In this document: one piece after another, positions 6,278-36,601 of the stretch
Numbering within the stretch: position 1 is the stretch's first letter
How the letters are laid out: each line of letters begins with the position of its first letter
Virus record (IMG/VR): IMGVR_UViG_3300020045_008362
Coordinates: 1 to 41,801 of that record
Length of the DNA stretch: 41,801 nucleotides
Direction: 5' to 3' (one strand)
DNA from: a virus
Taxonomy: Duplodnaviria; Caudoviricetes
Notes under the pieces: generated by a model
What the model saw: the letters and a program-made list of their open reading frames with translations, nothing else
What the model was told of the DNA's origin: nothing
Databases searched by the model: none
Position numbers and translations under genes: made by a program

Positions 6278-9082
6278 TTAATTATTTTTAAAATTTATTT
6301 CTTCCTGTGTTTGCAAAGGTGGTTTTTCTACAGGTATAAATCTTATAGGTTCTATTATTGAACCGAAAATTTCAATCGTAGCTATTTTGGTGGCCCTTGT
6401 TTTTACATGAGAACCGAACATAACATTATCTGCTTTTACAGCGCCGTTAACCCGTGAAAGTATTGTAGGGTAATTTTTAGAATATGGCGTGTTGTATAAT
6501 AGTTTAGTGATAAATTGCGAATTATCAGAAAAAATTGCGTCCTGACCTTCTATAAGTATACCTACCCTTTTTAAGGTTTCTATAGCGCGTTCTTTGGTTA
6601 TTAGCGCAGATTCTAACGGGTCCCTGTTGTCGCCCCTGGCCGCTATAATTAATTCACCTATGGTTCGTGTCCGAGTGTCGGAATTTGCGGTTTCTACCCT
6701 TGTTTCAGCATCCATTATACGGTGTAATATTTTGACTTCATCCCTTGTAGCTTCAGACATTCGTTCTTCTGACCAGTCACGTTCTTTAATCCACTTTTTA
6801 GCGTCGTCATACGAAATTAAGCTGTCAGAATATAAACTGTAAGCACCGGCCAGTAAAGCGCCTAACTGGTCGCCTGTGCGTTGGTTGTCCAGTTCTGAAG
6901 CGGCAGCGTTTGAAAAAGTTTCAGCGTTTTTCATTATTACCGGCATTAACATTACTGATCTGGACTGGAAGGCTTTTATAAATTCTTCAGTCACTACGCT
7001 GTAATATATATCCAGTGTTTCCTGCCAACGTTCTTTTTTATCTGGGCGAAGGTCTGGTTTTATTTCTAAAACCGTAATTCTGGATATATCGGAACGCTGT
7101 GTAAGGTTAGCGCCTATGGAAGCAAAAGCGAAGCACGAACGTATATTAAACTGCGCGGCAGAACCCCCGGAAGAACCTTTAATTATTTTTCCGCCGTCAG
7201 ATGTGGAACTGGCCCGCATTATCTCTAAAACTGCCTGCATACGTTCTGAAGCTTTACGGTCTTCAGATTCTGCTTCGTCAAACACCACAGGCAGGGCGTC
7301 AGCCTTCAAATATTGGCGTATGCCGGCTTCTGTGGTTGCGCCCTGGGCATCGACAAACATTTGCCCTAAAAAACGCTTAATAAACATTTTCATTACTTCA
7401 GATTTTCCAGATCCTGAAGCGCCGGTTAACCACATGTGGGAACGCCACGACAGCGCACCGCATAACGGGGCTATTACAATCCATCCTGCCAGAAGCCGGG
7501 CGTTTATGTCCCTGGCCCAGTTAAGACGTTCCAACATTTGAATTAGTTTATTGGCGTCACGCGCCGGCAGTGGTGCGGTAAGTTCAAAGCCTAATTCCTG
7601 CCCCGCTTCATATATATACCGGCTTTTGTGTTTTACAAACGGTGTGCGAACCCCGTTAACTATAAGCGTGTCGCCACAATGTATAACAGGCACGCCATTA
7701 TCTATCCAAGCGCCCCGGCCGCGTATTTTTGTAGGATTGAAAATATTTTGTTTTGTGCATAGCGTTATCAGGTGATCCGCTACAGTGTTTATTTCAAATT
7801 TTACTGTTCCAGACCGCGCAGTGGGTTTTGGATATGCGCCTTCCCAATAATTTAATGGTGCAAGCTGTAGCAGGTTGGCAGTAGTGATCCCGCCTGCTGA
7901 TAATTTCACTATGGTATTCGTTCTATACACAAAAAAAACATATAAGGACGTTTCGTTATTTTCAAAGCCCAAACATTTAAAGTAAGGGTTTTTCATTTCC
8001 GGTTCGTCTTCATGTATTTCAGGTATGGCGGATATTGGCGCTGCCGGGGCAGGCGTTACAAATACCGCATCCGGCAGCGGGGGGGCTACTACTTCAGGTA
8101 ATGGCAATTCATTAGGCGGAAATTCAGAAACGGCAGGTATATCAATTCTGTTAGCCTTAAGGTATTCTGCGGCCTGTTCCTGTGTCCAGTCAGCGTCGGC
8201 TATATCCCATTTTTTAGGGAATGAAGGTGAATTCTGAATCCTTTTGAAGTTGGCGGCCACATATTCGCAAACACCCTTAAATCTTTTGTACACCTGTGTT
8301 TTCTTGTTATACTCCCAACCGCCAAACATTGCCAGCACGCCGGCCAGGTCGTTGTCCCCCCACAAAAAAACATTGCGACCGGCTAACGGCGTCCAGTCTG
8401 CTGACTTAACATTATCTTTGCCGCCGCACCAGGTAACGCATACATATTGCGGAAACAGTCTTTTTGCAGCTTCGCACGCTTTTTCGCCTTCAACTACAAG
8501 GACTATAGCAGTAGGCCTTAAATACAGTTCGTGAAGGTTGTATAATATCCGTGGCAAATCAAAGCCACGCCATTTCCAAGCGTACTTCTGGCCGTCAGTA
8601 TTGTAGGTGTATGGTATCACGTCTTTTTTGCCGTCAGGCAGGTTAAATCTTAAGACATACCCCATTATTTGCCCCTGCGCGTTATGGTACGCCCAATGTG
8701 CTGCCGGTGTTCCGTATTCTTTGAACACAAGATTTTCAGGTGCAGGAAGCGATAACTGGTCAGGGACAGCATTAACCCAGACTGGCGCGGGCGGTTCAGG
8801 AACTCTTACCACTTCAGAAGCTATTGTCCTGCCTTCTGTGATAATATTTTTAGCTTCTGAATACGTGTAGCCCTGTTTTGTAAAAAAGTCGAACATGTCG
8901 CCTGATTCGCCACAGGCAAAGCATTTGAATATCTGCTTCACCGGGTTTACTTTCATAGACGCGTGTTCGTCATTATGAAATGGGCAGTTACCGACGCGTT
9001 CCGGTCCCTGTTGCTTCAGGCTTACGGAACGCCCTATAACTTCTTCTATTCTGTAATTGAATTTTATTTCGTCTATAGTCAT
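6278..9082 (-). CDS. DNA primase-helicase (CHC2 Zn finger, TOPRIM, P-loop ATPase)
   Basis: CPFH...CFAC; VVEGEK...GDND; GASGSGKS Walker A; VVFDEAE Walker B. Confidence 0.9.
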   Translation of the reverse strand: MTIDEIKFNYRIEEVIGRSVSLKQQGPERVGNCPFHNDEHASMKVNPVKQIFKCFACGESGDMFDFFTKQGYTYSEAKNIITEGRTIASEVVRVPEPPAPVWVNAVPDQLSLPAPENLVFKEYGTPAAHWAYHNAQGQIMGYVLRFNLPDGKKDVIPYTYNTDGQKYAWKWRGFDLPRILYNLHELYLRPTAIVLVVEGEKACEAAKRLFPQYVCVTWCGGKDNVKSADWTPLAGRNVFLWGDNDLAGVLAMFGGWEYNKKTQVYKRFKGVCEYVAANFKRIQNSPSFPKKWDIADADWTQEQAAEYLKANRIDIPAVSEFPPNELPLPEVVAPPLPDAVFVTPAPAAPISAIPEIHEDEPEMKNPYFKCLGFENNETSLYVFFVYRTNTIVKLSAGGITTANLLQLAPLNYWEGAYPKPTARSGTVKFEINTVADHLITLCTKQNIFNPTKIRGRGAWIDNGVPVIHCGDTLIVNGVRTPFVKHKSRYIYEAGQELGFELTAPLPARDANKLIQMLERLNWARDINARLLAGWIVIAPLCGALSWRSHMWLTGASGSGKSEVMKMFIKRFLGQMFVDAQGATTEAGIRQYLKADALPVVFDEAESEDRKASERMQAVLEIMRASSTSDGGKIIKGSSGGSAAQFNIRSCFAFASIGANLTQRSDISRITVLEIKPDLRPDKKERWQETLDIYYSVVTEEFIKAFQSRSVMLMPVIMKNAETFSNAAASELDNQRTGDQLGALLAGAYSLYSDSLISYDDAKKWIKERDWSEERMSEATRDEVKILHRIMDAETRVETANSDTRTRTIGELIIAARGDNRDPLESALITKERAIETLKRVGILIEGQDAIFSDNSQFITKLLYNTPYSKNYPTILSRVNGAVKADNVMFGSHVKTRATKIATIEIFGSIIEPIRFIPVEKPPLQTQEEINFKNN

Positions 9083-9114
9083 GGTTCAGGTAGTAGGGTA
9101 GTAAAGGTAATTTT

Positions 9115-10086
9115 TTATCTGAAAGGTTCGCAAGAATCTACACAGCCACCGTTAGGGGAATCTAATTCTTCGTCATATTCATAAATTACGCTATCGTCTT
9201 CAGCAAAATCAGTGAAACCTACCGCCATTTTTTTGAGATCTGAAACTGATCTATTTTCCCTAAAAAACCTTATCGGAAAATGAACACCCTTCCCTTTCAA
9301 TTGTATTTTTTTTAATCTTTCAGGGTGAACATAATTTTCATAATTTAATTCCATTCGTTCGGGAAAATCATAAATTTCAGGGTCTTCATTAATTAGTGTT
9401 AAATGCTTCCTTAGTGTTTTTTTATGGCACCATCTACAATTACCCTGATAACCTTTCAATCCAAGCCTGAAAGGTCTTTGCTCCCACCTGGCGTTAACCA
9501 TTGGCTTCGTTACCCCTGATGCAAAAGGTTCATAAAAAAGCTGATCACTTGTAACCCTGTTTAATTCGTCGGCTCGAATACCTACAACAGTATGAAAGTC
9601 TTCAAAGCCATGTGTTTTTAAGTAATGTTCCATAGGCCGCGTTTTTAAATCACGGGTGCAATGCAACTGATCTTTATTAGGAATTCCTAATTTTTTAATA
9701 AGTTCTTCCATTGGCGTATCAGGATCCGTATGCCTTTTTGCCGTATAAAAATCAACAACCCTATGTGTAACACCTTTACCATATACTGGATTTATAACAG
9801 CTTCTACCCATATTATAGGAATTTTATAATACGTTTCTATGTTGTGGGCGAATTGTAATGTTTTTTCGTCTTCCTGTCCTGTGTTTGCGAATAAAACTAT
9901 TATTTTACGTTTTCCGCTATATTTTGCCCACAACCTCAATAGCATATCCCCAGAAGTTTCACCGGCAGAAAAACTAACAAATATTGGTTTGTCGTCGTCG
10001 TCAATAGTCTTTATTAATTTAAAAGACTTAGGGTTGTTTAAGAAGTCTAAAACCCTTTGAGGTGTATTTTTAGTTACTGGTTTCAT
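9115..10086 (-). CDS. phosphoadenosine phosphosulfate (PAPS) reductase-family protein
   Basis: SFSAGETS PP-loop, FANTGQE, CTRDLK, GIRADE, GNCRWCHKK, C-terminal CVDSC. Confidence 0.85.
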   Translation of the reverse strand: MKPVTKNTPQRVLDFLNNPKSFKLIKTIDDDDKPIFVSFSAGETSGDMLLRLWAKYSGKRKIIVLFANTGQEDEKTLQFAHNIETYYKIPIIWVEAVINPVYGKGVTHRVVDFYTAKRHTDPDTPMEELIKKLGIPNKDQLHCTRDLKTRPMEHYLKTHGFEDFHTVVGIRADELNRVTSDQLFYEPFASGVTKPMVNARWEQRPFRLGLKGYQGNCRWCHKKTLRKHLTLINEDPEIYDFPERMELNYENYVHPERLKKIQLKGKGVHFPIRFFRENRSVSDLKKMAVGFTDFAEDDSVIYEYDEELDSPNGGCVDSCEPFR

Positions 10087-10496
10087 GGCTTTTTATTTAA
10101 TAATTCTTCGGCTTCGTCTTCAGTTTTAACTATAAGGCCAATACCGCCAAATTTGTTTACCATTTCTGTAAAAGCCACCTGTTCTACAGTAGCCCTTCCG
10201 GTTTTTGTTTTAACTTCTACTGTCATAAATACAGCTATAGGCCTACCCACCATTTCGGCGGTAATAATAACAGATTTTAAGCCTATTATATCGGAACTTC
10301 CTTTGCATAGGCCGGCGTGAAGTACACGGGCATTTTTTATAAGAACGTCGCCTGATTCCACATTTACAGTTTCTTTTTTAGTAAACATTTTGCTTGCACC
10401 AACCCAGGCGGTAGCTACATTATTTCTAAAAAGCCTGACACCGTTTATTTGTCCAAGTCGCAGCATTATACTACGCATCAAATCCCCTTCGTTCAT
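10083..10496 (-). CDS. VRR-NUC nuclease (Holliday junction resolvase-like)
   Basis: RLFRNNV...GSSDIIG...VEVKTKTGRATVEQ..F...GG.G. Confidence 0.88.
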   Translation of the reverse strand: MNEGDLMRSIMLRLGQINGVRLFRNNVATAWVGASKMFTKKETVNVESGDVLIKNARVLHAGLCKGSSDIIGLKSVIITAEMVGRPIAVFMTVEVKTKTGRATVEQVAFTEMVNKFGGIGLIVKTEDEAEELLNKKP

Positions 10497-10506
10497 AATA
10501 TATTTT

Positions 10507-10998
10507 TTAAAATGGTAAATCGTCTTCGTCTTCGTTAAAATTATTTTCTTCGTGCGCCGGGGGTTCTGTCCCTGCTACATACCAATCTGGCGGCGGTTCC
10601 TGATAGCGATCGTAATTGTTATATTTTGAAACATTCTGCTTATTGGTAAGCAACTGTATGTTATCTATGTTATATCCTTCCCAGTTCCTTATCCTGTCTA
10701 CGGTGGCGTTCTGGCCGCGCTTACCGGGTTTTAAAATATACCCCGTGTCTTCGCAGAATTTGCGAAATTGTTCTAATGTAATGGCAAAATCTATACGTCG
10801 CTTAATGGCGTTTTTTTTGAACGCATTGTACCTGATATATACAGGATCAGTAGCGCGGCGTTTACGCCAAAAGTGTTTATAACACAAGCCGCCTAATTTC
10901 TTAACAGGCTTATTGTTGCAGGCATACGCGCAGCACTGTTTACCTGCCTTTTTTTTGGCTTCAGAAATACAAAAATCAAAAACGACAGCAGTTTTCAT
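10507..10998 (-). CDS. Zn-finger plus HNH-like (beta-beta-alpha) protein ending DDLPF
   Basis: CCAYAC...LCYKH; TVDRIRNWEGYNIDNIQLLT..QN.SK. Confidence 0.75.
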   Translation of the reverse strand: MKTAVVFDFCISEAKKKAGKQCCAYACNNKPVKKLGGLCYKHFWRKRRATDPVYIRYNAFKKNAIKRRIDFAITLEQFRKFCEDTGYILKPGKRGQNATVDRIRNWEGYNIDNIQLLTNKQNVSKYNNYDRYQEPPPDWYVAGTEPPAHEENNFNEDEDDLPF

Positions 10999-11195
10999 TT
11001 TTCATTATTCATTTTTGATTCTACAATTATAAACCTGTCCTGTGAAAACGGCTTACTATACCCGTCTATGATTTTCTTTACTTCGTGCTGTGTTAGCCCT
11101 ACAGTAAAAGCGATCAAAGGAATATCCATATTAAAAATATGATATAAGGTAAGTATTCTTTGCGTCATGGCTACCAGTTTATTTCTTCTTCCCAT
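10995..11195 (-). CDS. small HTH-like protein
   Basis: IPLIAFTVGLTQHEVKKII fits a helix-turn-helix pattern; coupled to neighbours. Confidence 0.55.
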   Translation of the reverse strand: MGRRNKLVAMTQRILTLYHIFNMDIPLIAFTVGLTQHEVKKIIDGYSKPFSQDRFIIVESKMNNEK

Positions 11196-12769
11196 TCATT
11201 AACCTGGGCGGGCGGCGGGGGAATTAGGGCTTCGCGTTCTGACTTCCTGCGGGCTACAGCTTCAAATCTTTGTTTTTTCATTTTATACTGAACCCCTATC
11301 CAAGCTTCATTATATCCGCGATCCATAGCTATTTTTTGCAGGTCTTCCAAAGATTCAGCCATGCCTACTTCTAATGTTTTTGCTTTTTTGAAAGCTTTTA
11401 TAGCTTCGCTGCTTACTTCTAATAATTCGCCTTCAACCTGTTTAGGTTTGCTGTCCTTTACTTCGTATACGTGTCCGCAGTCAGGGCATACCGGCGAAGG
11501 TTCATGTACAGCAAAACAGGACAGGCATTGTTGTACGCGAACAGCAATTTCTTTGGGGCCCTTTTTTGATTTGTTTTTTACTTCACCGTCCAAAGACCAT
11601 TCGTGCAACTTATCAGGCAGCCCGTGGTTTTCTAAAAATTCACCATCTACCCAGTTGCCTACGTTGCCCACGTGGTCAAGTATGTACGCAAACGGCTTAT
11701 CTGAAAAAGCAATAGCAGCCAAACGGCCTTCACGCGTATTAAGGTCAAACCCCGGCGCATATACCGGCCTTAAAACCCTTCCCCACTGTTGTATAGCTAA
11801 AGACAGCGACTGGGTAGGCCTTAACATTACAGCTACGGTAGCTTTTGGAACGTCCGTCCCTTCGCTTATTAGATCACACGAACAAACGCCGTCTACCGTG
11901 CCGTCTGCAAGCCCACCCAGTACGCGCTTCCTTACGTCGTCGTCTGTAGTGCCGTCAATAGCGTAAAAACGGTAGCCTTTATCCCTGAACGCCTGGGCCA
12001 CTTCTTCAGTATGTGGAACTGAAACGCAGAACACTATAGCGGGCAGTTTTTTACCCTGGCAAACTTCTTCGTAGTGCGATACTGCGTCACCTGTAATAGT
12101 TGCTTTGTTTACAAGGTTTTCAAGATCGCGGGCGTTCCAGTCGCCTTTAGCTTTTTTCTTAGGCGCAGCGAATTGTTTTGGCGGCGACAGTACTTTGGCC
12201 TTAACTAAAAAACCTTCGTCCTGCAACCATTTTACGGATGGACCGGAAACGAGTTCTTCAAAAATGCCGTTATGATGCACACCCAAACCCTGACCGTCTG
12301 TCCTTACCGGCGTTGCAGTAACGCCTATAACTTTTATTTCTGGGTTTAAATCTTTAAAATGATTTATAGTTTTTCTCCATGAACCCGCTGTGGCGTGGTG
12401 CGCTTCGTCAACTATTATAACGTCAGGAATCCAGTTGGCAGCCGCGAAATAATTAAGCCGCTTTATTATAGTCTGAATGCTTGCAACCTGTACGCGGGTG
12501 TCAAAATTTGGTGTGAACAGCGGGTTTATCATTCCATGTTCTACATTGAAGTCCAGAAGGGCTTTAGAGGTCTGGCGAAGTAATTCTATCCTATGCACCA
12601 GAATAAGCGTTTTTTTGTCCTTAAGTGCCGCCTGCTGCGACATATAAGTGAAAACCACCGTTTTACCGCCACCTGTTGGCAGTACTAAAAGGATATAGTT
12701 TATTAACCGAACAAAACAGTCGCGAATTTTCGCCACGGCGTCGCCCTGGTAGTTGCGTAGTTTTATCAT
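11171..12769 (-). CDS. superfamily 2 DEAH helicase with C-terminal Zn finger
   Basis: LPTGGGKT, DEAHH, TATP, EGTDVP, QQWGRVLR, CLSC...CPDC. Confidence 0.93.
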   Translation of the reverse strand: MIKLRNYQGDAVAKIRDCFVRLINYILLVLPTGGGKTVVFTYMSQQAALKDKKTLILVHRIELLRQTSKALLDFNVEHGMINPLFTPNFDTRVQVASIQTIIKRLNYFAAANWIPDVIIVDEAHHATAGSWRKTINHFKDLNPEIKVIGVTATPVRTDGQGLGVHHNGIFEELVSGPSVKWLQDEGFLVKAKVLSPPKQFAAPKKKAKGDWNARDLENLVNKATITGDAVSHYEEVCQGKKLPAIVFCVSVPHTEEVAQAFRDKGYRFYAIDGTTDDDVRKRVLGGLADGTVDGVCSCDLISEGTDVPKATVAVMLRPTQSLSLAIQQWGRVLRPVYAPGFDLNTREGRLAAIAFSDKPFAYILDHVGNVGNWVDGEFLENHGLPDKLHEWSLDGEVKNKSKKGPKEIAVRVQQCLSCFAVHEPSPVCPDCGHVYEVKDSKPKQVEGELLEVSSEAIKAFKKAKTLEVGMAESLEDLQKIAMDRGYNEAWIGVQYKMKKQRFEAVARRKSEREALIPPPPAQVNEWEEEINW

Positions 12770-12781
12770 AACTGTATAGTG

Positions 12782-13006
12782 TTACTCTATTACAGCAGAT
12801 TCAGCAATGTTTTCTGTTTTTTTGGCCCGCAACCTATCTAAGGTTTCGTTTAGCTTATTTAACGTTTTAATTGGCTTAGGATCGTCACGCTCCCAATTCT
12901 GTATAGTAGCATGAGGAACCCCGGCTTCCCTGAATAGTTCAGAAGCTGAAAGGCCTAATTCCTGACATTTTTCCTTAATAATGTCTATCTGTTTTTTTTG
13001 CGACAT
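12782..13006 (-). CDS. Cro/XRE-family HTH regulator
   Basis: LSASELFREAGVPHATIQNWER; first gene of the leftward operon at the divergence point. Confidence 0.85.
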   Translation of the reverse strand: MSQKKQIDIIKEKCQELGLSASELFREAGVPHATIQNWERDDPKPIKTLNKLNETLDRLRAKKTENIAESAVIE

Positions 13007-13133
13007 GGTGTAAAATTATTTTAGTATTAATTTCAATACAGCAAAAATAATACATTAATTTTAATAAAAAAGTTTTTTATTTTGATTTTTATTTATTAGG
13101 TTTGCTGCACTATTAATTCAAATAATATTCAAA
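13007..13133. promoter_or_regulatory. divergent control region
   Basis: Minus-strand TATTTTTG (13049-13042) beside operator variant TACATTAATTTTAAT; plus-strand TAGGTTTG (13097-13104). Confidence 0.7.
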
Positions 13134-13955
13134 ATGAAAATTAATCGAAATTTAATCATCACAGTACAAAATCAAAATGATTTTGAAAACTTAACTGAAG
13201 TATCAGGTTCCGTTGACGTTCGCCAGGGCGCTACATTCACCGCACCGGCCTTAACTGAAGTATCAGGTTCCGTTTACGTTCGCCAGGGCGCTACATTCAC
13301 CGCACCGGCCTTAACAAAATCAGGTTCCGTTGACGTTCAGGAGGGCGCTACATTCACCGCACCGGCCTTAACAGTATCAGGTTCCGTTTACGTTCGCCAG
13401 GGCGCTACATTCACCGCACCGGCCTTAACAAAATCAGGTTACGTTGACGTTCGCGAGGGCGCTACATTCACCGCACCGGCCTTAACAATCAAAAACAGCG
13501 TTGCTGTTTTTGGAAAAAGCAAAAATAAATTAAACGTAGTGCATAATGACGGCATGATGTTTATAGTAGAATCTGAAAAAACATCTAAAGGAATAAAAAT
13601 ACTTTCCGGGCTACATTCTATTAAAATAATAGATTCTAAAGTTAATGGTATTTCAGGATTTTTAGTTTCAAAAGAAAGTTTTTCTGCTCACGGAGAAACA
13701 GTTAAAAAAGCAATATCTGACCTTCAATTTAAATTGGTGGCTGAAAAACTAAAAAAAGAACCGATAACACCAGATACTATAATAACTGATAATTATTACA
13801 GGCTTATTACAGGCGCTTGTGAATTAGGCGTTAAGGAATGGAGAAACAGGCACGGCATTACGCAAGAAGAAATAACAGCAAAAGAACTACTCCCTATTCT
13901 GGAAAAAAGCAACGCTTATGGTTTAAGTAGATTTAAAGAAATGCTTAAATTTTAA
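13134..13955 (+). CDS. repeat-containing (beta-solenoid-like) phage protein
   Basis: Five LT(EV/K/V)SG(S/Y)V(D/Y)V(R/Q)(Q/E)GATFTAPA units; C-terminal HGET...ITGACELG domain. Confidence 0.85.
   Translation: MKINRNLIITVQNQNDFENLTEVSGSVDVRQGATFTAPALTEVSGSVYVRQGATFTAPALTKSGSVDVQEGATFTAPALTVSGSVYVRQGATFTAPALTKSGYVDVREGATFTAPALTIKNSVAVFGKSKNKLNVVHNDGMMFIVESEKTSKGIKILSGLHSIKIIDSKVNGISGFLVSKESFSAHGETVKKAISDLQFKLVAEKLKKEPITPDTIITDNYYRLITGACELGVKEWRNRHGITQEEITAKELLPILEKSNAYGLSRFKEMLKF
13191..13481 (+). repeat. coding tandem repeat of 5 units (60, 60, 57, 57, 57 bp)
   Basis: GGGCGCTACATTCACCGCACCGGCCTTAAC is invariant in all units. Confidence 0.95.
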
Positions 13956-13961
13956 TACGCT

Positions 13962-14759
13962 ATGACACCCGAACAATACACAAGCGAAGACGCTATATCA
14001 AAAACGGGTTTAGATTATATAGAAAAATCGCCACTGGACTACTGGTGGCGGTTTTTAAATCCAGAACGCGAAGCCCATGTAAAAGATAAAGATATGTTAT
14101 TTGAAGAAGCTTTTAGGTGTTCAGTTTTGACACCTGTTGAATTTTCAAAATTATATGTTAAGCAGCCGCCTATAAAAAGAACCAATAATTTTGGTAAAGC
14201 AGAATACGCTTCTTTGGTGGCTACTGTAGAAAGTAATGGACAAATTTTAATGTCGGCTGCAAGCTATGAAACCATAGTGGCTATGAGGGATGCTGTTTTA
14301 AGCCACCCTACTACCAAACTACTTTTTGACAACAATAACGGTTATCCCGGCGAACCTTTGCGTTTTGAAGAAGCTAATTCTGGCGCTATAGTTAAGTTTT
14401 GCCCGCATTGGGTGCATATACGAACAGGCAAAAAGCTTATAGTTAACCTAATGTCTACCGAAAACGCGGGCAAAGAAAAATTTTCTAAGGAAGCGTATGA
14501 TTTAAAACTTCACAAAAGGGCTGCCCTTCAAATGGATGGACTGGTAGGAAGCGCTATGGTCTTTGTAATGGTAGAAAGAAGTGCGCCGTACAAATTACAG
14601 GTGCATTCACTTGACGATCGTTCTATAGACCTGGGCCGTTCTGTATATGTTGAAAATTGCGTAACATATATGGAATGTCTGGAATCTGGAAAATGGCCTG
14701 GGCTTCCTGAAAAAATACAACCTGCAAGTTTACCGGACTGGGTTTTTAAAAATTATTAA
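13962..14759 (+). CDS. RecE/exonuclease VIII-like (DUF3799-type) protein with degenerate catalytic motif
   Basis: ISKTGLDYIEKSP..Y N-terminus; FVMVERSAPY; CLESGKWPG...LPDW C-terminus; PD/DLK replaced by PH/NLM. Confidence 0.8.
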   Translation: MTPEQYTSEDAISKTGLDYIEKSPLDYWWRFLNPEREAHVKDKDMLFEEAFRCSVLTPVEFSKLYVKQPPIKRTNNFGKAEYASLVATVESNGQILMSAASYETIVAMRDAVLSHPTTKLLFDNNNGYPGEPLRFEEANSGAIVKFCPHWVHIRTGKKLIVNLMSTENAGKEKFSKEAYDLKLHKRAALQMDGLVGSAMVFVMVERSAPYKLQVHSLDDRSIDLGRSVYVENCVTYMECLESGKWPGLPEKIQPASLPDWVFKNY

Positions 14760-14760
14760 C

Positions 14761-16002: not shown

Positions 16003-16006
16003 CCAC

Positions 16007-16402: not shown

Positions 16403-16443
16403 ATTTTAAATTTTAAATCCCGGCGGGGTTACGTATAAAACAA

Positions 16444-27701: not shown

Positions 27702-27713
27702 AATATTTTTATT

Positions 27714-27935: not shown

Positions 27936-28792
27936 TATTTACGACGGATTATAGAACTGTTACTTATTTTTACATTGGCGGTTTTTGCCGTCAACACAGA
28001 ACCCTGAAGCTGCCTGTTAACAACTTTGAAAGATTCTATATAGGTTATCGGGAATATAGCTTTCATATTTTGTATTTGAGTGTATATTTCCTGCAAAGCA
28101 ACAGGAAGCGTGCCGGCTAAATCCTGTAAATCCTGGGCAGCGCTTAACTGATTTTGCACAGATTGAATATTACCTTCCATGCTATCCAGACTGTTATTTA
28201 TTTTTCCTGAATAGTAATCAAAAGTGTTAGGGTTAGATTCGGCTGCCGCTGTGTACTGGTTTATTTTTACGGCCTGAAGCTGAATTTCATATACATTTTG
28301 CGTTACGCCCATAGCCGGGGACATTCTGGCCGGCAAAACAGTTCTTACATTTGAACTGCGCGCTGAAGTAGCGAACCCGTCTTTTATAGCCTGTCTTTTA
28401 GCGTCCAGTAACGGATCGTCGCTGTAAAATTCCAGAAGCTGAACCGTTAACGTTGCCGCTATTAAGTTTCCCGAAGGATCAGTAAACAGGGTTGTTTTTG
28501 AAAAACTGGGCACAACAAAATTACCAACAACATTACCGTTACCCAGAACAAGCGGTAAAACCTTACGTTCTATGGTAGCCGTCCGCAATTCCTCTATATC
28601 AGCTTCAGGATCCGTAAAACTGGCATGTAAGTACATTTCAAAAGAAATAGTGTCCAGAACGTCGCCTGTGGCTTCCAGGCGTGGTTTCCTGTTTATTCTG
28701 GCGTGTTGTGCATATTCCACGCCGAAAGTTTCTTCTAATGAAGAAAAACCTTTGGGGCCTGTGAATCTTATATTTCCTAATTGTGCATACAT
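27935..28792 (-). CDS. tail tube initiator, P2 gpU-like, with helical C-terminal extension
   Basis: MYAQLG.I.F, YAQHARI..KPRLE.TG..LD.I, LPLVLGNG. Confidence 0.85.
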   Translation of the reverse strand: MYAQLGNIRFTGPKGFSSLEETFGVEYAQHARINRKPRLEATGDVLDTISFEMYLHASFTDPEADIEELRTATIERKVLPLVLGNGNVVGNFVVPSFSKTTLFTDPSGNLIAATLTVQLLEFYSDDPLLDAKRQAIKDGFATSARSSNVRTVLPARMSPAMGVTQNVYEIQLQAVKINQYTAAAESNPNTFDYYSGKINNSLDSMEGNIQSVQNQLSAAQDLQDLAGTLPVALQEIYTQIQNMKAIFPITYIESFKVVNRQLQGSVLTAKTANVKISNSSIIRRK

Positions 28793-28840
28793 GCCGTAAA
28801 TATAAGTATTTTAAAAATACGTTAACGTAGCCTGTAAAAT

Positions 28841-28872
28841 AAAAAACCACGGACAGTAAAGCCGTGGTTTTT
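28841..28872 (-). terminator. intrinsic terminator after the tape measure gene
   Basis: AAAAACCACGG-N10-CCGTGGTTTTTT. Confidence 0.8.
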
Positions 28873-28944
28873 AGCCCCCATAAAATACCGTAAAATTAAT
28901 TTTACAATGCGTATGACTGCAAATATATAAACTTTTTATTAATA

Positions 28945-30816
28945 CTAATACGATAAACGTTGTTTTCTGGCCCAGGCAGCTTCTAATTCACGGATAAGCT
29001 GTGGCGTATATTGCTTTATGGCTGCCAGAATATCCTGCGGATTGCCGGCGCCATGTATTACCGGCGCAAAAGTAACCGTTATACCGCCACCACCGCCACC
29101 GCCGCGCCCTGAACGATTAGGCGAAATACCCTGGGCCATGTTACCGGAAGCACCCACAAGCGCAGGCGAACCTTTTTCAATCCCCTTTTTAGCACCTTCA
29201 GTAATGTTTACGCCGTAATCCATAAAAACTTTGGATGGTGAAGCGATACCCAAAACAGATTTAAACGCCCCGGCTATTTTCTTACCTATATCTTTAACGT
29301 AGCTAAACAGCGCGGTAGCTTTTGATTTTATACCTTCCCAGATACCCATAACGATATTAGAACCTATAAGCAGGAACTGGGCGGGCAGTTTTTTAAGCCA
29401 GTCCCAGAAGCCTATAAATACCTGCTTCACTTTAGCCCATATCTGCGGGAAAAACTGGATAAGTAAAGACCATCCTTTTATCATCCATCCCACAGGCCCC
29501 AACATAAGCCACCCCCATTTTTTTACAAATTCCCAGGCAGCAGCAAAAAAACCTTTTATTTTCTCCCACAGGTTGCGGAAAAACGCCGAAACTTTATCCC
29601 AGTTTTTAACAAGCAATATAACAATAGCTATAAGGGCTATAACAGCGATAATAACCCACGCTATAGGGTTAGCTAACAGGGCAGCATTAAAAGCCCAGGT
29701 AGCAGCAGAAGCGGCCCAGGTAGCGGCTGTTTGCAGGTAGGTAGGTATAAGCAGCGCTTTACTGGCTACGCCTAACAGCCATTTACTGGCCGCGGCTGCT
29801 TTTTCGGCGGCCACAGTATACCATATTACTGCGTTCAGTTTTATTTTTGAAAAAGTTTCGGCGTTTGTAAGTATTAAATACAAGCGTTTCACGGCTAACA
29901 TACCCTGATATACTTTAAGAAGGCCACCAAATAAGAATGCCACGGCTGACACAGCTAAAGACAATAATCCTAAGCCGCCCACTACTTTTATTATTGTAGA
30001 AAGCAATTTGGGGTTATCCTGCGCCCACTTGTTGAACCTGTCGGCGGCCTTGCCTACAGAAGCCATTGTTTTAGCCACGGTAGGCAAAAGCGTTTTACCG
30101 GCGGTTTCGGCCACTTCACTAAATGCCACTTTCATTTTAGCAGCAGACGTAGCGGTGTTGGCGGCCTGTCCTTTTACCTGTTTTTCAACTGCTTTTAGAA
30201 CGTATTCCTGTGCAGCACCAAGCCCGTAAGTAGCCTGTATTTGCTTTATCAAAGGAATATCAGATTTATTAAGTGCGCCGGCTTTGGCCAGGGCCTGCGC
30301 GCCCAGTGCGGGGTTCTGCAAAGCCTTACCTAACTGAACGGCATTACTTGAAGCTTCACCAAAGCCACCGGCTGCCAAATCAAAAGCCGCTTCTGTAGCC
30401 CTGTCAAACACCCCGGACATTCTGGCCGTTTCGTCAGAAACCTTTCTGAAGGAAGCTATTTTGGATTGAACGGCCTGTATTTCTTCGTCTTCTACCCCTA
30501 TTCTGGTCTGCAACTGGCTTGCATAGTTAGCGGCGGCTATTGCGGCTTTGTTGTCCGTTTCGCCCATTGTTTTGAAGGTACTTGAAAGCCGCCTAAATGC
30601 TATTTCTGATTCTTCAGCAGCGTTTACAGAAAGCGCAAGCGGCGCCAATATAGCTAAACCTATAGCGCCAGAAGTACGGCCAACCCCGAAGGCAGAATCC
30701 GCCATACTACCCACTTTCTTCATTTGGTTGTTTATCTTAGTGGTAGCTTCGGAAACAACCCTGGTAGCTTTATCTGTGGCCGACAATATTAAAGCAACTT
30801 CAAAGGCTTTTTTCAT
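28945..30816 (-). CDS. tape measure protein
   Basis: Ala-rich helical; ANPIAWVI..VIAL...KNWDKV and W/F periodic repeats; GIASPSKVF; likely start 30816. Confidence 0.92.
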   Translation of the reverse strand: MKKAFEVALILSATDKATRVVSEATTKINNQMKKVGSMADSAFGVGRTSGAIGLAILAPLALSVNAAEESEIAFRRLSSTFKTMGETDNKAAIAAANYASQLQTRIGVEDEEIQAVQSKIASFRKVSDETARMSGVFDRATEAAFDLAAGGFGEASSNAVQLGKALQNPALGAQALAKAGALNKSDIPLIKQIQATYGLGAAQEYVLKAVEKQVKGQAANTATSAAKMKVAFSEVAETAGKTLLPTVAKTMASVGKAADRFNKWAQDNPKLLSTIIKVVGGLGLLSLAVSAVAFLFGGLLKVYQGMLAVKRLYLILTNAETFSKIKLNAVIWYTVAAEKAAAASKWLLGVASKALLIPTYLQTAATWAASAATWAFNAALLANPIAWVIIAVIALIAIVILLVKNWDKVSAFFRNLWEKIKGFFAAAWEFVKKWGWLMLGPVGWMIKGWSLLIQFFPQIWAKVKQVFIGFWDWLKKLPAQFLLIGSNIVMGIWEGIKSKATALFSYVKDIGKKIAGAFKSVLGIASPSKVFMDYGVNITEGAKKGIEKGSPALVGASGNMAQGISPNRSGRGGGGGGGITVTFAPVIHGAGNPQDILAAIKQYTPQLIRELEAAWARKQRLSY

Positions 30817-30862
30817 TTTATTTTTTATTAAAAAAGCCATACCGACACCGGTACGGCTTTAA

Positions 30863-31012
30863 TTATTCTTCTTCTGTTTTGTTCAAAATGTTATGCAGCT
30901 TTAAAGATTCTACATACCAGTAGTAAATCTCTTTAGCGTCCATTTTTAACACTTTTGAAATACCCCCGCCAGTAAAGTGCGCCAGGAATGCTATGTGTTC
31001 TGGCTTTACTGA
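30863..31012 (-). CDS. tail assembly chaperone -1 frameshift extension (gpE'-like), 49 aa
   Basis: Open -1 frame after A-GTT-TTT-C: SVKPEHIAFLAHFTGGGISKVLKMDAKEIYYWY...; no ATG of its own at the start. Confidence 0.8.
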   Translation of the reverse strand, partial: SVKPEHIAFLAHFTGGGISKVLKMDAKEIYYWYVESLKLHNILNKTEEE

Positions 31013-31311
31013 AAAACTGTGCTAAAATGTTCCATTAGTTTCATGTAGTCGCCGGCAGACATTTCTTCCAGTTCTTCCATAGTAACCATTTTGTCATTTA
31101 CAGAAGTACATACGGAAATTAAAGCAGGAAACATTTTTTCGGCGTCACCGTCCATTAGCCTCTGGGCTTTAATAACGTGCTTTCCTTTGGCAATAATACA
31201 TTTAGCTACAACACCATCAGATAGAACTATTTCAGTAATGTTTGAAGGTTTTTCGTTTAATGTAGCGTCCCTTAAAGCCCTGCTTTTTTGTTGTGAGGGT
31301 GTTTGTCCCAT
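31006..31311 (-). CDS. tail assembly chaperone (P2 gpE/Mu gp41-like)
   Basis: Between tube and tape measure; EELEEMSAGDYMKL. Confidence 0.88.
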   Translation of the reverse strand: MGQTPSQQKSRALRDATLNEKPSNITEIVLSDGVVAKCIIAKGKHVIKAQRLMDGDAEKMFPALISVCTSVNDKMVTMEELEEMSAGDYMKLMEHFSTVFQ

Positions 31312-31340
31312 AATAATAGTGATTTTTAGATTTAATAGTT

Positions 31341-31365
31341 AAAAAACCGCCCTGGGTTGGGCGGC
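31341..31365 (-). terminator. terminator after the tail tube gene
   Basis: GCCGCCCA-ACCC-AGGGCGGTTTTTT. Confidence 0.75.
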
Positions 31366-31369
31366 TGTG

Positions 31370-31891
31370 TTATGCTCCTATGTTAGCCCGGTAAGTAGCG
31401 AATATATCTACACCGTCTACCATGAATATATTAGCCAAAGCGTCAAACTCTATTACAGGCTGCCCGTCAATTTCTAACTTGTAGTAAGTCAGCGTCATTT
31501 TAGAACTGGCTTCTACGTTATCGTGCTGTTTGAAGTTGCCACCCGGAAAGTTCTTAGGCGTGCCGGTAATGTAAGCTACGCAGGGAACTTCAGAATTCAA
31601 ACCTTCGGATCCGTAATTTTCAAGTGAAGAACGAACCTGAAGCTTTAGCGCTTTACGGGGGTCGGCAAACTGTTTCATTACGTCGGCATAGTACGAATTC
31701 CACTTTAAAGTAGCTTCCATTTTATCCACGCCAGAAAACAATTCTACCTTACCTATCATTCCCAATGCCTTGTGTTCGGACATCATGTGGGTAATATCTG
31801 GAAGGTTTATTTCTTCCACTTTACCAAGCTGCGACTGGCCGTCAACGTAAACGTTGGCGTTTGTCAATCTGTTAACTGTTATCCCTGCCAT
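31370..31891 (-). CDS. tail tube protein (P2 FII-like)
   Basis: LTNANVYVDG...G.VEEINLP...YYKLEIDG..V.E.D...N...VDGVD. Confidence 0.92.
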   Translation of the reverse strand: MAGITVNRLTNANVYVDGQSQLGKVEEINLPDITHMMSEHKALGMIGKVELFSGVDKMEATLKWNSYYADVMKQFADPRKALKLQVRSSLENYGSEGLNSEVPCVAYITGTPKNFPGGNFKQHDNVEASSKMTLTYYKLEIDGQPVIEFDALANIFMVDGVDIFATYRANIGA

Positions 31892-33303
31892 TATGCTATC
31901 TGTTCTAATAGGTTAATATCTAAATAAGATTTAAACGTGATACGTTCAGCAGGCGTAGGCACCATGAATACCAGATCAAAGGTAACATGGCCCAGGGCCA
32001 GTTCTTCAGGCGTGTTATCCGCACTGTAAACACAACGCGAACCAGGCAAACAAGCGCCACGGCCTATAAGGGTTCTAAAAAACGAATTTCCTGATTCACG
32101 AACTGCGTCTATAGTGGCCTGGGTTAAAGGCTTATCTATAAATGGCAATATTGCCTGTTCCAAAGATTCGTGAACTATATCCGCAGTCCTGCGAACCGGA
32201 ATAAAGTTCTTAGGATCAGTGTTTGTAGGCCATGCCGCCGAACGGTTGCCCCAGGTGCGCGTTCCTGTGCCAAACCCTGTGAATGTGGTAGTGATACCTT
32301 TTTCATTCAGTAGGTTGGCTTCAGTACTGGCGTCATTTATTGAAGCCGTAACCGGTATTTCTGTACCGTCTATACCAAAAATTTCATGGTTAGAAGGTGA
32401 AACCCAGTAGCCTTCTTCGCGATCCACGCGGGCTATAACGCCGGCCATATATTGGCTATAAGGAACGCTTACGTTTGAATCACTGGCAGCGTCGTAAGCC
32501 TTAAGGTGCGGGTGAAGCAGGTAAGAGCGTTCAGAAGACGTTTTAAAATTAATAGTTGAAGCCGGGCCGCGGCCTGCTATTGCTGCTGCGTGTGAAGTGC
32601 CTAAAGGTGAATCTACAAGGGATATAGCCCTGTATTTGTCTTCTAAAGACCTCAACGCTGTAGATACGGCTACCTGTTCAACAAAAACAGGTGCTATTAA
32701 TATCTTAGGGTAAAAACCAAAAGTATTAAAAATCAATTCCCAGGCCTTCGTTCCTGTTCTGGTGCTTCCGGTGGTTGTTCCTATAACCTGTGAAGAAGTC
32801 ACAGTTCCGAAGTCTAATTTTTTATAGGTAAATTTCAGCACAAGGTCTTCAGCGGCCACAGCAGACAACGCAGTGAAATTTCCAAAGGCGTCCAGTGTGT
32901 AATCTGTATCTTTTACACCTGTCCAGGCGGTAGTTCCGTCGGTAAGGAAAATAGAAACGTTGCCTATTGGCGCAAACCCTAACTTCAGCTTACCTTCAGT
33001 TATGGTTTTAGATTCCAGACTAACGTTAGCTGTGTTGGTTGTGGAATTAAAAACATTCACAACAACAACGGTAGCCGCGCCCTGCTGAAATATAGCGTCC
33101 AACGCCTGCGGTATTGTAAAGCCCGGAAGCATCTGGCCGAATTGGGCTGCGTCAGTAGGTGATAGAACCAAAGTAGGCGTGTTTACCGGTCCCGCCGGTG
33201 ATATGCCTACAAGGGCTATAACGGAAGACTTAACCACCTGGACAGCGCGCGGGCCTTGTTGAACTTCTATAGTTTCAACACCATGTAAATAGTTAACTGG
33301 CAT
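31891..33303 (-). CDS. contractile tail sheath protein (P2 FI-like)
   Basis: YLHGVETIEV, GYWVSPSN, ANLLNEKGITT, WGNRS, FIPVRRT, PAERITF. Confidence 0.95.
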   Translation of the reverse strand: MPVNYLHGVETIEVQQGPRAVQVVKSSVIALVGISPAGPVNTPTLVLSPTDAAQFGQMLPGFTIPQALDAIFQQGAATVVVVNVFNSTTNTANVSLESKTITEGKLKLGFAPIGNVSIFLTDGTTAWTGVKDTDYTLDAFGNFTALSAVAAEDLVLKFTYKKLDFGTVTSSQVIGTTTGSTRTGTKAWELIFNTFGFYPKILIAPVFVEQVAVSTALRSLEDKYRAISLVDSPLGTSHAAAIAGRGPASTINFKTSSERSYLLHPHLKAYDAASDSNVSVPYSQYMAGVIARVDREEGYWVSPSNHEIFGIDGTEIPVTASINDASTEANLLNEKGITTTFTGFGTGTRTWGNRSAAWPTNTDPKNFIPVRRTADIVHESLEQAILPFIDKPLTQATIDAVRESGNSFFRTLIGRGACLPGSRCVYSADNTPEELALGHVTFDLVFMVPTPAERITFKSYLDINLLEQIA

Positions 33304-33315
33304 AGCTTGTTAAAT

Positions 33316-33837
33316 TTAGTTATCTACAGGCAGCGGAACTACTATCGTGTCGCCGTCCGGCCTGTCTATAAGAGTTACTTGTTTTAATAAAATAGATATG
33401 TCTTCAGTGTAGTTTTCTACTGCTAAAGATGTTGTTTTGAATACGGCCTGAAATTGCCAGACGTTGTCTTTTTTTACTGCTTCAGGCGAACCTAACAAAT
33501 GATGTTTTACAGCCTGCATCCTATGGCAGTTAGTTGGCCTAAAGCCCAACAAAGCCTGTTTAAGTACAGCTAATAATCCATAAACGCCATTAGCACCGCG
33601 CAATAAGTTACACTCAATAAGCACAGCAATAAAAACGCTTTCCATTTGGCTTACTTGTGCTGTAGAATTTACGTTTTCATATTCAGAACCCGCATACATA
33701 ACAGTGAATTGCGCTTTTGTCGGTTCTGGTTTTAATCTTTCGTTTTCTACTTCAGGCGTTTTAACAACCCTAACACCTACAGCCGCAAACGGGGCTAACC
33801 GATTAAGTACGTCGTTTTCTAATTGTTCGTAATTCAT
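33316..33837 (-). CDS. tail terminator/completion protein (Mu gp37-like)
   Basis: V.YAGS.Y...Q...LRG..G.Y.LL..L...LLGFRP; position before the sheath gene. Confidence 0.78.
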   Translation of the reverse strand: MNYEQLENDVLNRLAPFAAVGVRVVKTPEVENERLKPEPTKAQFTVMYAGSEYENVNSTAQVSQMESVFIAVLIECNLLRGANGVYGLLAVLKQALLGFRPTNCHRMQAVKHHLLGSPEAVKKDNVWQFQAVFKTTSLAVENYTEDISILLKQVTLIDRPDGDTIVVPLPVDN

Positions 33838-34181
33838 GGTATAGAAGGTTGCATGGTTGCTATATAAGTGTCGCCGTCTGATTTTGTGGTAACTTTTAGA
33901 ACTACGTAATAGCCTTTACCTATCACTTCTACGTATTCAGGATTACCTGCGTCTACGCTTGTTTTTAAGCCCGGAAAACTGCTTACAAAATAATCCATAT
34001 AAGGTTTTTCAGTATCAAAGTCTTCCAGTCCTGCCAGGTATTCTTTTTCCGAAGGGTCTTTAAACCCTACCCTTGCAGTATATGTTTCCCCAGAAGCGCC
34101 GGAAACCCAAACAGCGTCGTAACCAAAAAAATTAGTTATAGTTCTGTGTACGTTGCCTTTTAGCGCATCAAAAGGATTCAT
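33834..34181 (-). CDS. head-tail joining protein
   Basis: Position after capsid decoration gene; MNPFD...FGYDA.W and beta-rich pattern. Confidence 0.7.
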   Translation of the reverse strand: MNPFDALKGNVHRTITNFFGYDAVWVSGASGETYTARVGFKDPSEKEYLAGLEDFDTEKPYMDYFVSSFPGLKTSVDAGNPEYVEVIGKGYYVVLKVTTKSDGDTYIATMQPSIP

Positions 34182-34182
34182 G

Positions 34183-34509
34183 TTATCGGGATAAAAGAAC
34201 GTTTATAACAGTAGCGCCGTCAGCCGCCGCTTCATAGGCCACGCCGGCAAATGTGTTAGATGTTGCGGTACCTGTTATAGCGGATCCGTCAGCTAAAAGA
34301 TATACTTTTTTGCCTACAGCAATAGCACCTGAAGCCACTTTAGGAAACGCATAAACGCCACACATGTTTATAATAGCTGTTTCGCCTTCAAGATATTTGC
34401 CTGAAGAAGCCCCCACGGTGTCGCCTACTGCTACCGGTTCGCCGGAATCATAGCCGCCTACTGGCGCAACCACGGCGATAGTTTCGCCTTTTGCTACAAA
34501 ATTTTTCAT
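34183..34509 (-). CDS. capsid decoration/cement protein (DUF2190-like)
   Basis: MKNFVAKGETI.V.AP....SG..V.VG...GV...PK...G.KVY. Confidence 0.85.
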   Translation of the reverse strand: MKNFVAKGETIAVVAPVGGYDSGEPVAVGDTVGASSGKYLEGETAIINMCGVYAFPKVASGAIAVGKKVYLLADGSAITGTATSNTFAGVAYEAAADGATVINVLLSR

Positions 34510-34540
34510 TTATTATGTTTTTAAACGTGAATTTTTATTT

Positions 34541-34565
34541 AAAAAAGGGCGACCGTAGCCGCCCT
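34541..34565 (-). terminator. terminator after the capsid gene
   Basis: AGGGCG-GCTACGGT-CGCCCTTTTTT. Confidence 0.75.
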
Positions 34566-34585
34566 GGTTATTTTTTATACAGACA

Positions 34586-36601
34586 CTATGCCGGGGCAGC
34601 GCCGTTGTTCCTGAATAAACCGCGCCAGTCTATTGCTTTGGCAGCAAAAACCATACGGGCTTTAACTTCTATACCGTCGATATTGAAGCCTTCGCGCTGA
34701 TCCATAAACAGTTCTTCTTCACCATCCAAAAAGGCGTACTCTACAGTATCTACAGCTTCAGGGCTTGCAGATAAGAACCATTTATAATCCGTTATGCGTG
34801 GATCAACAATGGTAGTCAATCCCCTTACAGCGGCTATAGAAATATCAGACTGCTTATTAGGTGTGTAATTAGCAGAAGTCATTTGTATGGCGGTAAATTC
34901 ATTTTGCGGGCCTACAATAAGGAATTTAGGCGAAACGTTTATAAAGTCCCCTACATCGTCTTTTTGTGTCCTGAACTTCTGGAAAGCCACGTTAAGACTG
35001 GTAGGGCTAAGTGCAGTACCGGTGCTAATGTAGTTACCGTGGTCTACGTGGAACAAAGCTTTATTGTCATACATAACAGGGTTGTCGTTAAGTATGCTGT
35101 AAACAATATCAGATTGCTTAATAGCAGCCTTCGCAGCAAACGCCTGCGGAATTCTGTTAAACGCTGATAAATCGTCGTTTATAATAGCTTCCCAGGTAAT
35201 ACCTATGATCTTACCGAATTTAGCAAGCCTGTAACTAACGCCGTGTTCAGACATTGTACCGTATTTGTATTCCTGACCTTCCTTAACTTCGTCAAGATTG
35301 CCAAAAATACCGGTAAGCGCCACGCGTGTAACAGCCCTGAAGTCGTTTATTGTGGTGCGCCTGGCCCACGCCTGAAAGGTGCGTTCCTGTTGCAGGTACT
35401 GGGCTAAAAGTGTCCTTTGTATGGTGTCACCTAAAAGCAACGGAAAATCCGTAGTGTGGTGAAGCCCCCTTACTTTTTCACCCAAAGCCAGTTTTGCTAT
35501 GTTACGCTGCGACATGCCGTGGGTGCGAACACCCGCACGGATCAAAGATTCTTCAGCCATTCTTAGAAGGGACATACCCTTAAAGTCTGAAGCAGCCCTA
35601 ACGTTTTCTTCGCCCATAGCTGAAGCAGCACCTGGGTTTATCCTTAACAATAAGGCGTTAGACATTGCGGAACGGGTTTTTTCGCTATCCGTGTTCGGCT
35701 GTGCGGCCGACGGATGGGCGTTTACAGGGTTGCCTTTTTCCCATTCAGATAATGCGCGTTCACGGGCCACATTAACGTCTACCTTATCGTCATTGATAAG
35801 TGTTTCCGCGAACGTATCAGGTAGTTTTAAAGACCTGGTTACGCTGCGTATGGTTTCGATTCTTTGGCGTTCTTCAGCACGCGCCAACGAACGAGCCTGA
35901 TCCAATCCTTCCGGTGTCGGTGCAGCCGGTGTTGTTGGTGGCGTTTTTACTTCTTCTGCCATTTCGTTATTATTAGAATTAGAATTATTTTCTTCGGTGT
36001 TTGGATCAGTATTTTCTACCGGCGCTGCCGGGGTTACGTCTTTTACTGTAACGTCGTGTTCTGATTTGTCTTCGGAACGAACACGGCTGTTTATGTCTGC
36101 CTGCACGGGAACAAAAGAAATTTCTGTGGGTTCCCAGTTGACGGCTTTATACGTAGGCAATTCAGAATCTACAGCGGAACGCGTCAGTTCATAGGCGTAC
36201 ACATCGTATCCGGCAGAAACGCCTGTAACTATGCCGTCGGCCACTTTATCCATTAATTCCGTATCGTCTTCTGATTGAGAAAACCTAACCCTGGCGCGGC
36301 AAACTCCATCCGCTACCCATGCGTCTTCTACGACGCCTACAACCATTTTACGGGTGGCGCCATATTTGTTATGGTTATCCAAAACAGGCGCGCCTGACTT
36401 AAGGCGGGTTAAATTAACGTGTGCAGGATCGCACGACAGAACTTCTTTGAACTGTCCTACTTCCCAGTCGTATGAACGAACTGGCGTTTCTGTGGCAAAA
36501 GTAACTTCTACCGTTCTTTTAGCCCTGTCAAAAGTAGCTATATCCAGTTTTGCCCTGGTATATTGCTTATGTACTTTTACTATTTCTTTAGCTTCTGCCA
36601 T
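34586..36601 (-). CDS. prohead protease-major capsid fusion protein
   Basis: GAPVLDNH, VSAGY, WEPTEISFVPVQAD (HK97-type protease); TTDFP.LL, EG.EYKYG, IINDDL, AKAIDWRGL (Mu gpT-like capsid). Confidence 0.93.
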   Translation of the reverse strand: MAEAKEIVKVHKQYTRAKLDIATFDRAKRTVEVTFATETPVRSYDWEVGQFKEVLSCDPAHVNLTRLKSGAPVLDNHNKYGATRKMVVGVVEDAWVADGVCRARVRFSQSEDDTELMDKVADGIVTGVSAGYDVYAYELTRSAVDSELPTYKAVNWEPTEISFVPVQADINSRVRSEDKSEHDVTVKDVTPAAPVENTDPNTEENNSNSNNNEMAEEVKTPPTTPAAPTPEGLDQARSLARAEERQRIETIRSVTRSLKLPDTFAETLINDDKVDVNVARERALSEWEKGNPVNAHPSAAQPNTDSEKTRSAMSNALLLRINPGAASAMGEENVRAASDFKGMSLLRMAEESLIRAGVRTHGMSQRNIAKLALGEKVRGLHHTTDFPLLLGDTIQRTLLAQYLQQERTFQAWARRTTINDFRAVTRVALTGIFGNLDEVKEGQEYKYGTMSEHGVSYRLAKFGKIIGITWEAIINDDLSAFNRIPQAFAAKAAIKQSDIVYSILNDNPVMYDNKALFHVDHGNYISTGTALSPTSLNVAFQKFRTQKDDVGDFINVSPKFLIVGPQNEFTAIQMTSANYTPNKQSDISIAAVRGLTTIVDPRITDYKWFLSASPEAVDTVEYAFLDGEEELFMDQREGFNIDGIEVKARMVFAAKAIDWRGLFRNNGAAPA

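Follow-up and report, generated by a model that had tools for sequence, protein, structure and literature searches.

Non-temperate double-stranded DNA phages can lose short words from the whole genome and from both strands alike in response to host defence, a pattern known as restriction-site avoidance and surveyed by Rusinov et al. 2018 (PMC6286503), who report no avoidance of Type I or Type IIG sites; avoidance of Type I sites is known for an early-injected region (PMC12455610). Type I enzymes with a GAG half-site include EcoCFTI (gAgN7gTca) and a Polaribacter enzyme (gAgN6rTgc), both in Table S4 of Blow et al. 2016, and the Prevotella intermedia methylome (PMC5608340) holds GAGN6TGG and GAGN6TTA (Pin17FIV/V) as well as GAGN4TAC, the second half of one enzyme's site being relaxed on overexpression. 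The only characterised systems we found with so short a CTC core are phosphorothioate-marking systems, which have a very short CTC-core consensus, occur in Bacteroidota and prefer CCTC (PMC12914056, PMC11931770): the sites marked by BREX type 4 in Bacteroides salyersiae are CCTC (17%), TCTC (4%) and ACTC (0.2%), and those of a Dnd system from Lachnospiraceae are GAGC/GCTC (both PMC12914056). Here, we describe the loss of the trinucleotide GAG/CTC from a myophage contig, one virus record of 41,801 bp (IMGVR_UViG_3300020045_008362), the whole of which we call the window. GAG avoidance in the window behaves like restriction-site avoidance, yet it fails the test for a Type II site and is only partly of Type I form; in contrast to the published survey, it concerns a three-base non-palindromic word, forms a plateau across all contexts and is accompanied by clear avoidance of words with Type I geometry.

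The window contains 50 GAG and 80 CTC, a total of 130 against 652 ± 22 (minimum 591) in 100 dinucleotide-preserving shuffles, so that about four-fifths of these sites are gone from both strands. With a Markov-corrected observed/expected ratio (O/E) of 0.20 and a z of −20, GAG/CTC is the lowest of the 32 trimer pairs, the next lowest standing at 0.73. The initial annotation had reported the depletion from hand counts in core genes between 6278 and 36601, where we find 89 sites against 787 predicted by base composition; its three gene counts prove exact, and the several tens per gene that it expected come to 76, 40 and 58. The core genes are indeed depleted, but the loss is genome-wide and limited neither to that span nor to those genes.

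1..41801, no strand: whole phage contig, with 130 GAG/CTC sites; Type I-like bipartite words are also avoided
6278..9082, minus strand: DNA primase (CHC2 zinc finger and DUF6371), 5 GAG/CTC against 76 expected
10062..12250, no strand: longest run without GAG or CTC, about 2.2 kb, bounded by sites at 10059 and 12251
22897..24510, minus strand: tail-region gene with the weakest depletion, 22 GAG/CTC against 45, present in 1 of 17 kin contigs
31891..33303, minus strand: tail sheath, 2 GAG/CTC against 40 expected
34586..36601, minus strand: protease-major capsid fusion, 4 GAG/CTC against 58 expected; marker for the kin search and tree

Codon usage alone is insufficient to account for this pattern, as the initial annotation had argued, because the word is also missing across codon junctions and from intergenic DNA (4 sites against 32 expected). 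Measured against 200 synonymous-codon shuffles, each of the four junction classes is low (GAG 24 against 90 and 14 against 83, CTC 22 against 173 and 10 against 108; ratios 0.09–0.27), which places the depletion in both orientations and all frames, and the in-frame codons are equally scarce, with GAG used for 38 of 799 glutamates and CTC for 10 of 950 leucines. Avoidance of Shine-Dalgarno sites is irrelevant, such a site being found in none of 40 gene leaders. Nor does O/E approach 1 after correction for codons and dinucleotides, and in twenty 20-kb stretches of 14 Bacteroidota chromosomes, which stand in for the actual host, it ranges from 0.71 to 1.06. Depletion is weakest in patchily distributed genes such as that at 22897–24510, which, given its near-absence from kin, is likely a recent import in which purging is incomplete; it is also weaker in the endolysin, HNH and GIY-YIG genes (9–12 GAG/CTC per kb). 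The window shows the classic form of avoidance too, with CTAG (0 against 103) and CTGCAG (0 against 11) absent, CCAGC reduced (5 against 74) and several 6-mers near zero. The codons ATC and GTC, too, are used unusually seldom.

Among relatives the trait is either on or off, with an overall O/E of 0.07–0.36 against 0.73–1.24. In 37 viral loci with capsid identity of 56–67%, GAG O/E lies at 0.08–0.36 in 9 and at 0.73–1.24 in 28, and the codon-junction classes fall at 0.05–0.38 in 10 depleted genomes against 0.41–1.52 in 8 others. A quick capsid tree of 48 rows, 10 of them depleted, calls for five changes in the trait; three of these are forced by starred branches, so the trait has switched at least three times, gain and loss being indistinguishable. 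Scans with the primase and helicase found 4 depleted loci among 101, all of them kin and one on a contig already counted; none of 116 distant capsid loci has a GAG O/E below 0.5, and no kin emerged when viral contigs were scanned with single sequences. Depleted kin have 38–45% GC and most avoid CCAGC; non-depleted kin mostly have 33–40% GC, avoid CGCG, GGCC and GATC, and mostly carry a GH108 endolysin. Since the two groups differ in GC, in glutamine codon use and in other avoided words, they would seem to infect different hosts. Avoidance of CCAGC/GCTGG is seen in most GAG-depleted and in no non-depleted kin; in one pair of sisters, 87% identical, one genome (G008) has 23 sites and the other (G012) none.

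The same word has been lost, again on both strands, from the cultured phages KL1 (29 GAG/CTC against 809 expected, O/E 0.04) and PA73 (28 against 826), which were chosen for this loss. The window comes from a myophage family that is unrelated to them and whose host is likely a member of the Bacteroidota, and its loss is partial where theirs is near-total; its family offers the on/off contrast among close kin and allows a Type I layer to be separated from a context-free one. Bordetella phage PY223 is depleted as well (GAG O/E 0.31), while MinM1 (0.73) and eight further cultured-phage regions (0.58–0.87) are higher. Of 310 sequences of at least 7 kb, 17 (some of them overlapping) have GAG below 0.45; no other trimer recurs in this way, the next being TAA in 4. 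In KL1 and PA73 (loci L220 and L221) the surviving GAGs are mostly ribosome-binding sites of the form AAGGAGT and not AAGGAGG; a deficit of T after GAG in these two phages was set aside, the survivors there being Shine-Dalgarno sites. One further sequence (L223:1-20969) is enriched twofold in GAG (O/E 1.97) and purged of GATC (2 against 63) and CCAGC (1 against 24).

Part of the loss has the geometry of Type I restriction sites. GAG was tested as a Type I half-site because the Prevotella methylome (PMC5608340) suggested it, and surviving GAGs are short of T at +8 to +11 (z −5.3, −7.1, −5.9 and −3.1; 680 sites), a deficit so sharply bounded that offsets 7 and 12 are near 1. This matches the A...T spacing of the enzymes with a GAG half-site, and CAC, CAA, GAC and CAG show the same deficit. 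Among the spaced 3+3 words in window genes, 45 of the 3033 whose A and T lie 7–10 apart fall below 20% of expectation, compared with none of 6795 at other spacings and with a mean of 2.6 such words (maximum 6) in 20 runs of synonymous shuffling; the avoided words have gaps of 5–7 only. Corresponding counts are 47 and 99 in depleted kin and 12–19 against 3–5 in non-depleted kin, and the contrast recurs in KL1 (159 of 2179 words with Type I geometry against 1 of 6269 others) and PY223 (82 of 1884 against 5 of 6672). Bipartite words of Type I form are avoided wholesale in this genome, and their spacing suggests that they are restriction targets. In another locus (L222) Type I words are avoided (index 0.81) and GAG is not lost (0.95).

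This layer accounts for only about twofold of the GAG loss. Type I enzymes with a GAG half-site predict normal GAG wherever the downstream T is lacking, but such GAGs stand at 0.20–0.25, the value in the window being 0.20 (against 1.22 for CAC and 1.84 for CAG), and at 0.04 in KL1 and PA73 combined (CAG 1.10). Type I sites are therefore not the whole cause, and an N6-methyladenine/N4-methylcytosine Type I partner fails as well, the N4-methylcytosine form (G at +8 to +11) leaving the rest unexplained at 0.17. Relative to non-depleted kin, the odds of GAG in core genes are 0.11 with at least two T, 0.21 with no T and 0.30 in the class that was safest a priori. Under every 5-mer scheme 16 of 16 GAG contexts lie at or below 0.5 of non-depleted kin, most at about 0.25–0.3, as selection against a very short DNA target, proposed in the initial annotation, would have it; its further suggestion of overlapping restriction-modification sites holds insofar as these exist and shift the loss about twofold, but the plateau remains. 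GAGAG, with two overlapping sites, stands at 0.05, about the square of that plateau. A Type II-style test, which CTAG and CCAGC pass, fails for GAG because all its contexts are low, and the cores CAG, AAG, GAC, CAC and GAA have medians near 1 with a few deep holes (CAA near 0.6). Beyond the Type I layer there is a further 3–5-fold loss over nearly every flanking context.

In the coding regions of depleted kin, GAG survives as often as in non-depleted ones where the glutamate precedes a TTT phenylalanine codon (15 of 84, against 164 of 3227 elsewhere; the positions are partly homologous). A trade-off with GAATTC was discarded, GAG ahead of TTC not being kept (3 of 52).

The account we prefer, at about an even chance, is that a host-encoded system reads bare GAG/CTC, each site carrying a small cost, and that this adds to the avoidance of Type I sites. 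Some hosts would carry a defence that reads unmarked GAG/CTC in double-stranded DNA; each unmarked site would cost the phage little, selection would keep the word out, and avoidance of Type I geometry would take GAG down by about another factor of two wherever a T follows 8–11 bases downstream. The agent would be encoded by the host, kin differing because their hosts differ, and, if mutation-selection balance is assumed, ln O/E corresponds to a scaled cost of roughly 1.3–2.4 per site. The initial annotation's interpretation is partly supported as a whole, and the undescribed host defence to which it thought the signature could point may be the cause. A bolder extension, which we put forward tentatively and consider on the doubtful side, is that a widespread undescribed bacterial self/non-self system recognises bare GAG/CTC in DNA entering the cell and responds to the dose of sites, and that it has driven the same purge several times in this family and independently in Pseudomonas, Burkholderia and Bordetella phages.

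Several observations weigh against a single reader of the bare word. Neither a host nor a defence gene was identified for this phage. Flanking context shifts GAG survival 6–7-fold in a leave-clade-out model of core genes, from 0.08–0.09 to 0.58–0.64 at the 95–99th percentile and to 1.0–1.3 in the top 1% (18–24 sites, partly homologous). The downstream-T deficit at GAG is the strongest of the five cores tested (0.52–0.67), and among kin the loss of GAG goes together with Type I avoidance (p = 4e-5, 27 loci).

The last two of these observations also favour the strongest rival, to which we would give rather less than an even chance: GAG is a shared half-site of many Type I sites and the end of many Type IIG, Type III and BREX type 1 adenine-methylation sites, and joint avoidance of all of them would open a three-letter gap with no single reader. 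The missing T at +8 to +11 and the purged A...T-spaced words fit such a pile-up, as does the reduced survival of GAG after a C/G-rich upstream context, and an unrelated phage (L403:1-19987) has lost CAG (0.12) and GAG (0.16) together, whatever the downstream T, with AG at 0.30. By string counts in Table S4 of Blow et al., GAG tops ten half-sites with 29, followed by CAG (25), CCA (23), AAG (21), CAA (20) and GAC (19), and P. intermedia has three GAG Type I motifs and one relaxable enzyme (PMC5608340). However, CAG occurs in as many motifs of that table (134 string hits for cag and ctg, 109 for gag and ctc) and is undepleted in our data at 1.09. The avoidance of other cores is sparse and deep where that of GAG is a dense plateau; GAG without T is 4–5-fold down while CAC and CAG without T are near or above 1; and the N4-methylcytosine partner, as noted, fails for the remainder. 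Finally, GAG O/E is bimodal among kin, but the Type I index overlaps between depleted (0.73–0.88) and other genomes (0.86–0.92).

If a single host reader is nevertheless at work, the most concrete candidate, though an unlikely one, is phosphorothioate marking by a system like BREX type 4, either by itself or together with a Dnd variant whose target is GAGC/GCTC. The CTC core and the phylum fit, and GAGG, the complement of the preferred BREX type 4 site CCTC, is the lowest pooled context (0.14, against 0.21–0.23 for GAGA, GAGT and GAGC). Against it, GAGC (GCTC) is depleted too, in the window itself more than any other context (0.106), although the B. salyersiae sites are ACTC, CCTC and TCTC, without GCTC; full-length BrxP was found in only 2 of 401 Bacteroidota genomes, and the published frequency is 0.6% of genomes; the motif is reported to vary by strain; and in the passages covered we found no report of phages escaping a phosphorothioate system by motif loss. 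Recognition of unmarked sites has been demonstrated for BREX type 1 (PMC11842806), and the passages covered do not extend it to type 4. Two other candidates were dropped: TdpABC, whose mark falls on GATC and not on GAG (PMC12914056), and DarTG1, on which a preprint proved irrelevant.

It is improbable that the agent is instead the phage's own enzyme, one that cuts or modifies GAG (for example in degrading host DNA) and whose word is avoided in its own genome, although such an enzyme would yield a strand-symmetric, context-free loss and the window encodes several nucleases. No cluster of open reading frames (ORFs) was both present in the depleted and absent from the other genomes in a comparison of 18 contigs, themselves incomplete, at a threshold of at least 60 aa, and none tracked the trait when 22 incomplete contigs and early regions were compared at 40 aa or more. 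The nearest is a gene at 13134–13955 (plus strand), of which 4 of the 6 depleted and 1 of the 16 non-depleted kin carry a homolog; its 273-aa product belongs to no known family, and five tandem 57–60-bp repeats lie at 13190–13480. A PAPS-reductase-family gene at 9115–10086 (minus strand), inserted between the primase and a VRR-NUC gene, belongs to a common phage family and matches SspD and BrxP only weakly (SspD E 2e-7); it was rejected as cause or counter-measure, being absent from 20 of 20 kin records, with a GAG O/E below 0.5 in just 1 of 62 loci that carry such a gene. The converse idea, an anti-restriction gene limited to non-depleted kin, was abandoned when the candidate cluster proved to be the GH108 endolysin.

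Less probable again is a context-specific mutational process without selection, also raised in the initial annotation, for instance a single base of CTC/GAG being prone to deamination or to biased repair. A low GA/TC dinucleotide frequency across the window (0.69) and the absence of CTAG are in its favour. In five depleted sister pairs (87–98% identical), however, GAG is the least conserved trimer (0.29–0.68, against medians of 0.67–0.96), and in non-depleted pairs it lies outside the six least conserved. Of the single-base differences at GAG, 22 affect the first, 58 the middle and 71 the third position, indistinguishable from 64/176/211 in controls (p = 0.99). Because GAG is least conserved in depleted sisters and changes at all three bases, the data point to loss by selection and not by a mutation hotspot; a one-base hotspot would skew the spectrum and spare frames in which only the middle base is free, and neither is seen, the loss being equally strong where the middle A/T is the only free codon position. 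A mutagenic defence that selects against the motif would belong with the host reader of bare GAG/CTC.

Protospacer adjacent motifs (PAMs) are three bases long and act on both strands, but avoidance of a GAG or CTC PAM is the least probable reading together with an RNA-level or translation signal, since one spacer uses one PAM and a genome-wide 5–30-fold loss would be unexpected, an RNA-level cause would be strand-specific where both orientations are depleted in genes, and a translation signal sits poorly with leaders that lack Shine-Dalgarno sites here and with KL1 and PA73 survivors that mostly are such sites. CRISPR spacers of 401 genomes gave no match to positions 1–20000 of the window.

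We found no paper on GAG/CTC depletion in phages in the open literature (most subscription journals and bioRxiv supplements lay outside its scope), and the restriction passages of the KL1 genome paper (PMC3483164) make no mention of the loss. Because a few mutations cannot rid a genome of a three-letter target, the repeated purging of this one implies a persistent host pressure that is shared; no characterised system yet explains such a pressure, and the signature would name the target word of the missing defence. If a reader of bare GAG exists, the cultured PA73, KL1 and PY223 would make it directly testable. Contrary to the conclusion of the main published survey, some lytic phages avoid sites with Type I geometry at large scale, and the spaced-word test, which needs a genome sequence alone, could help to predict which phages survive heavily armed hosts.

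The gene set of the window is that of a myophage, with a contractile tail, lambda-type portal and terminase, the protease-capsid fusion, the primase, several nucleases and two helicases; a scan of 47 ORFs brought up no integrase, and the closest cultured phages reach a capsid identity of about 40% at most. Its host is likely a member of the Bacteroidota, because Shine-Dalgarno sites are missing, gene leaders are A-rich, TAnnTTTG, a Bacteroidota promoter element, occurs 52 times, and the following gene encodes a protein of the DUF3127 type and is 66–70% identical at the DNA level to stretches of Bacteroidota genomes.

16444..17040, plus strand: DUF3127 single-strand DNA-binding protein, host marker

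Close to it, a gene at 17776–18228 (plus strand) has a weak match to the Acb2/Tad1 hairpin (E 7e-4) and homologs only in three depleted genomes; its product is possibly a signal-sponge anti-defence protein, and a YspA/SLOG-like gene lies nearby at 16007–16402. The endolysin at 18432–18914 (minus strand) has been swapped within the family, being an M15 peptidase in the window and in one relative (G013) and GH108 in most non-depleted kin. A 761-aa protein encoded at 3458–5743 (minus strand) is kept across the phage family and matches no assignable function. The last 110 bases of the contig (41692–41801) are an exact inverted copy of 40859–40968, an internal stretch of the terminase gene, and are probably an assembly artefact.

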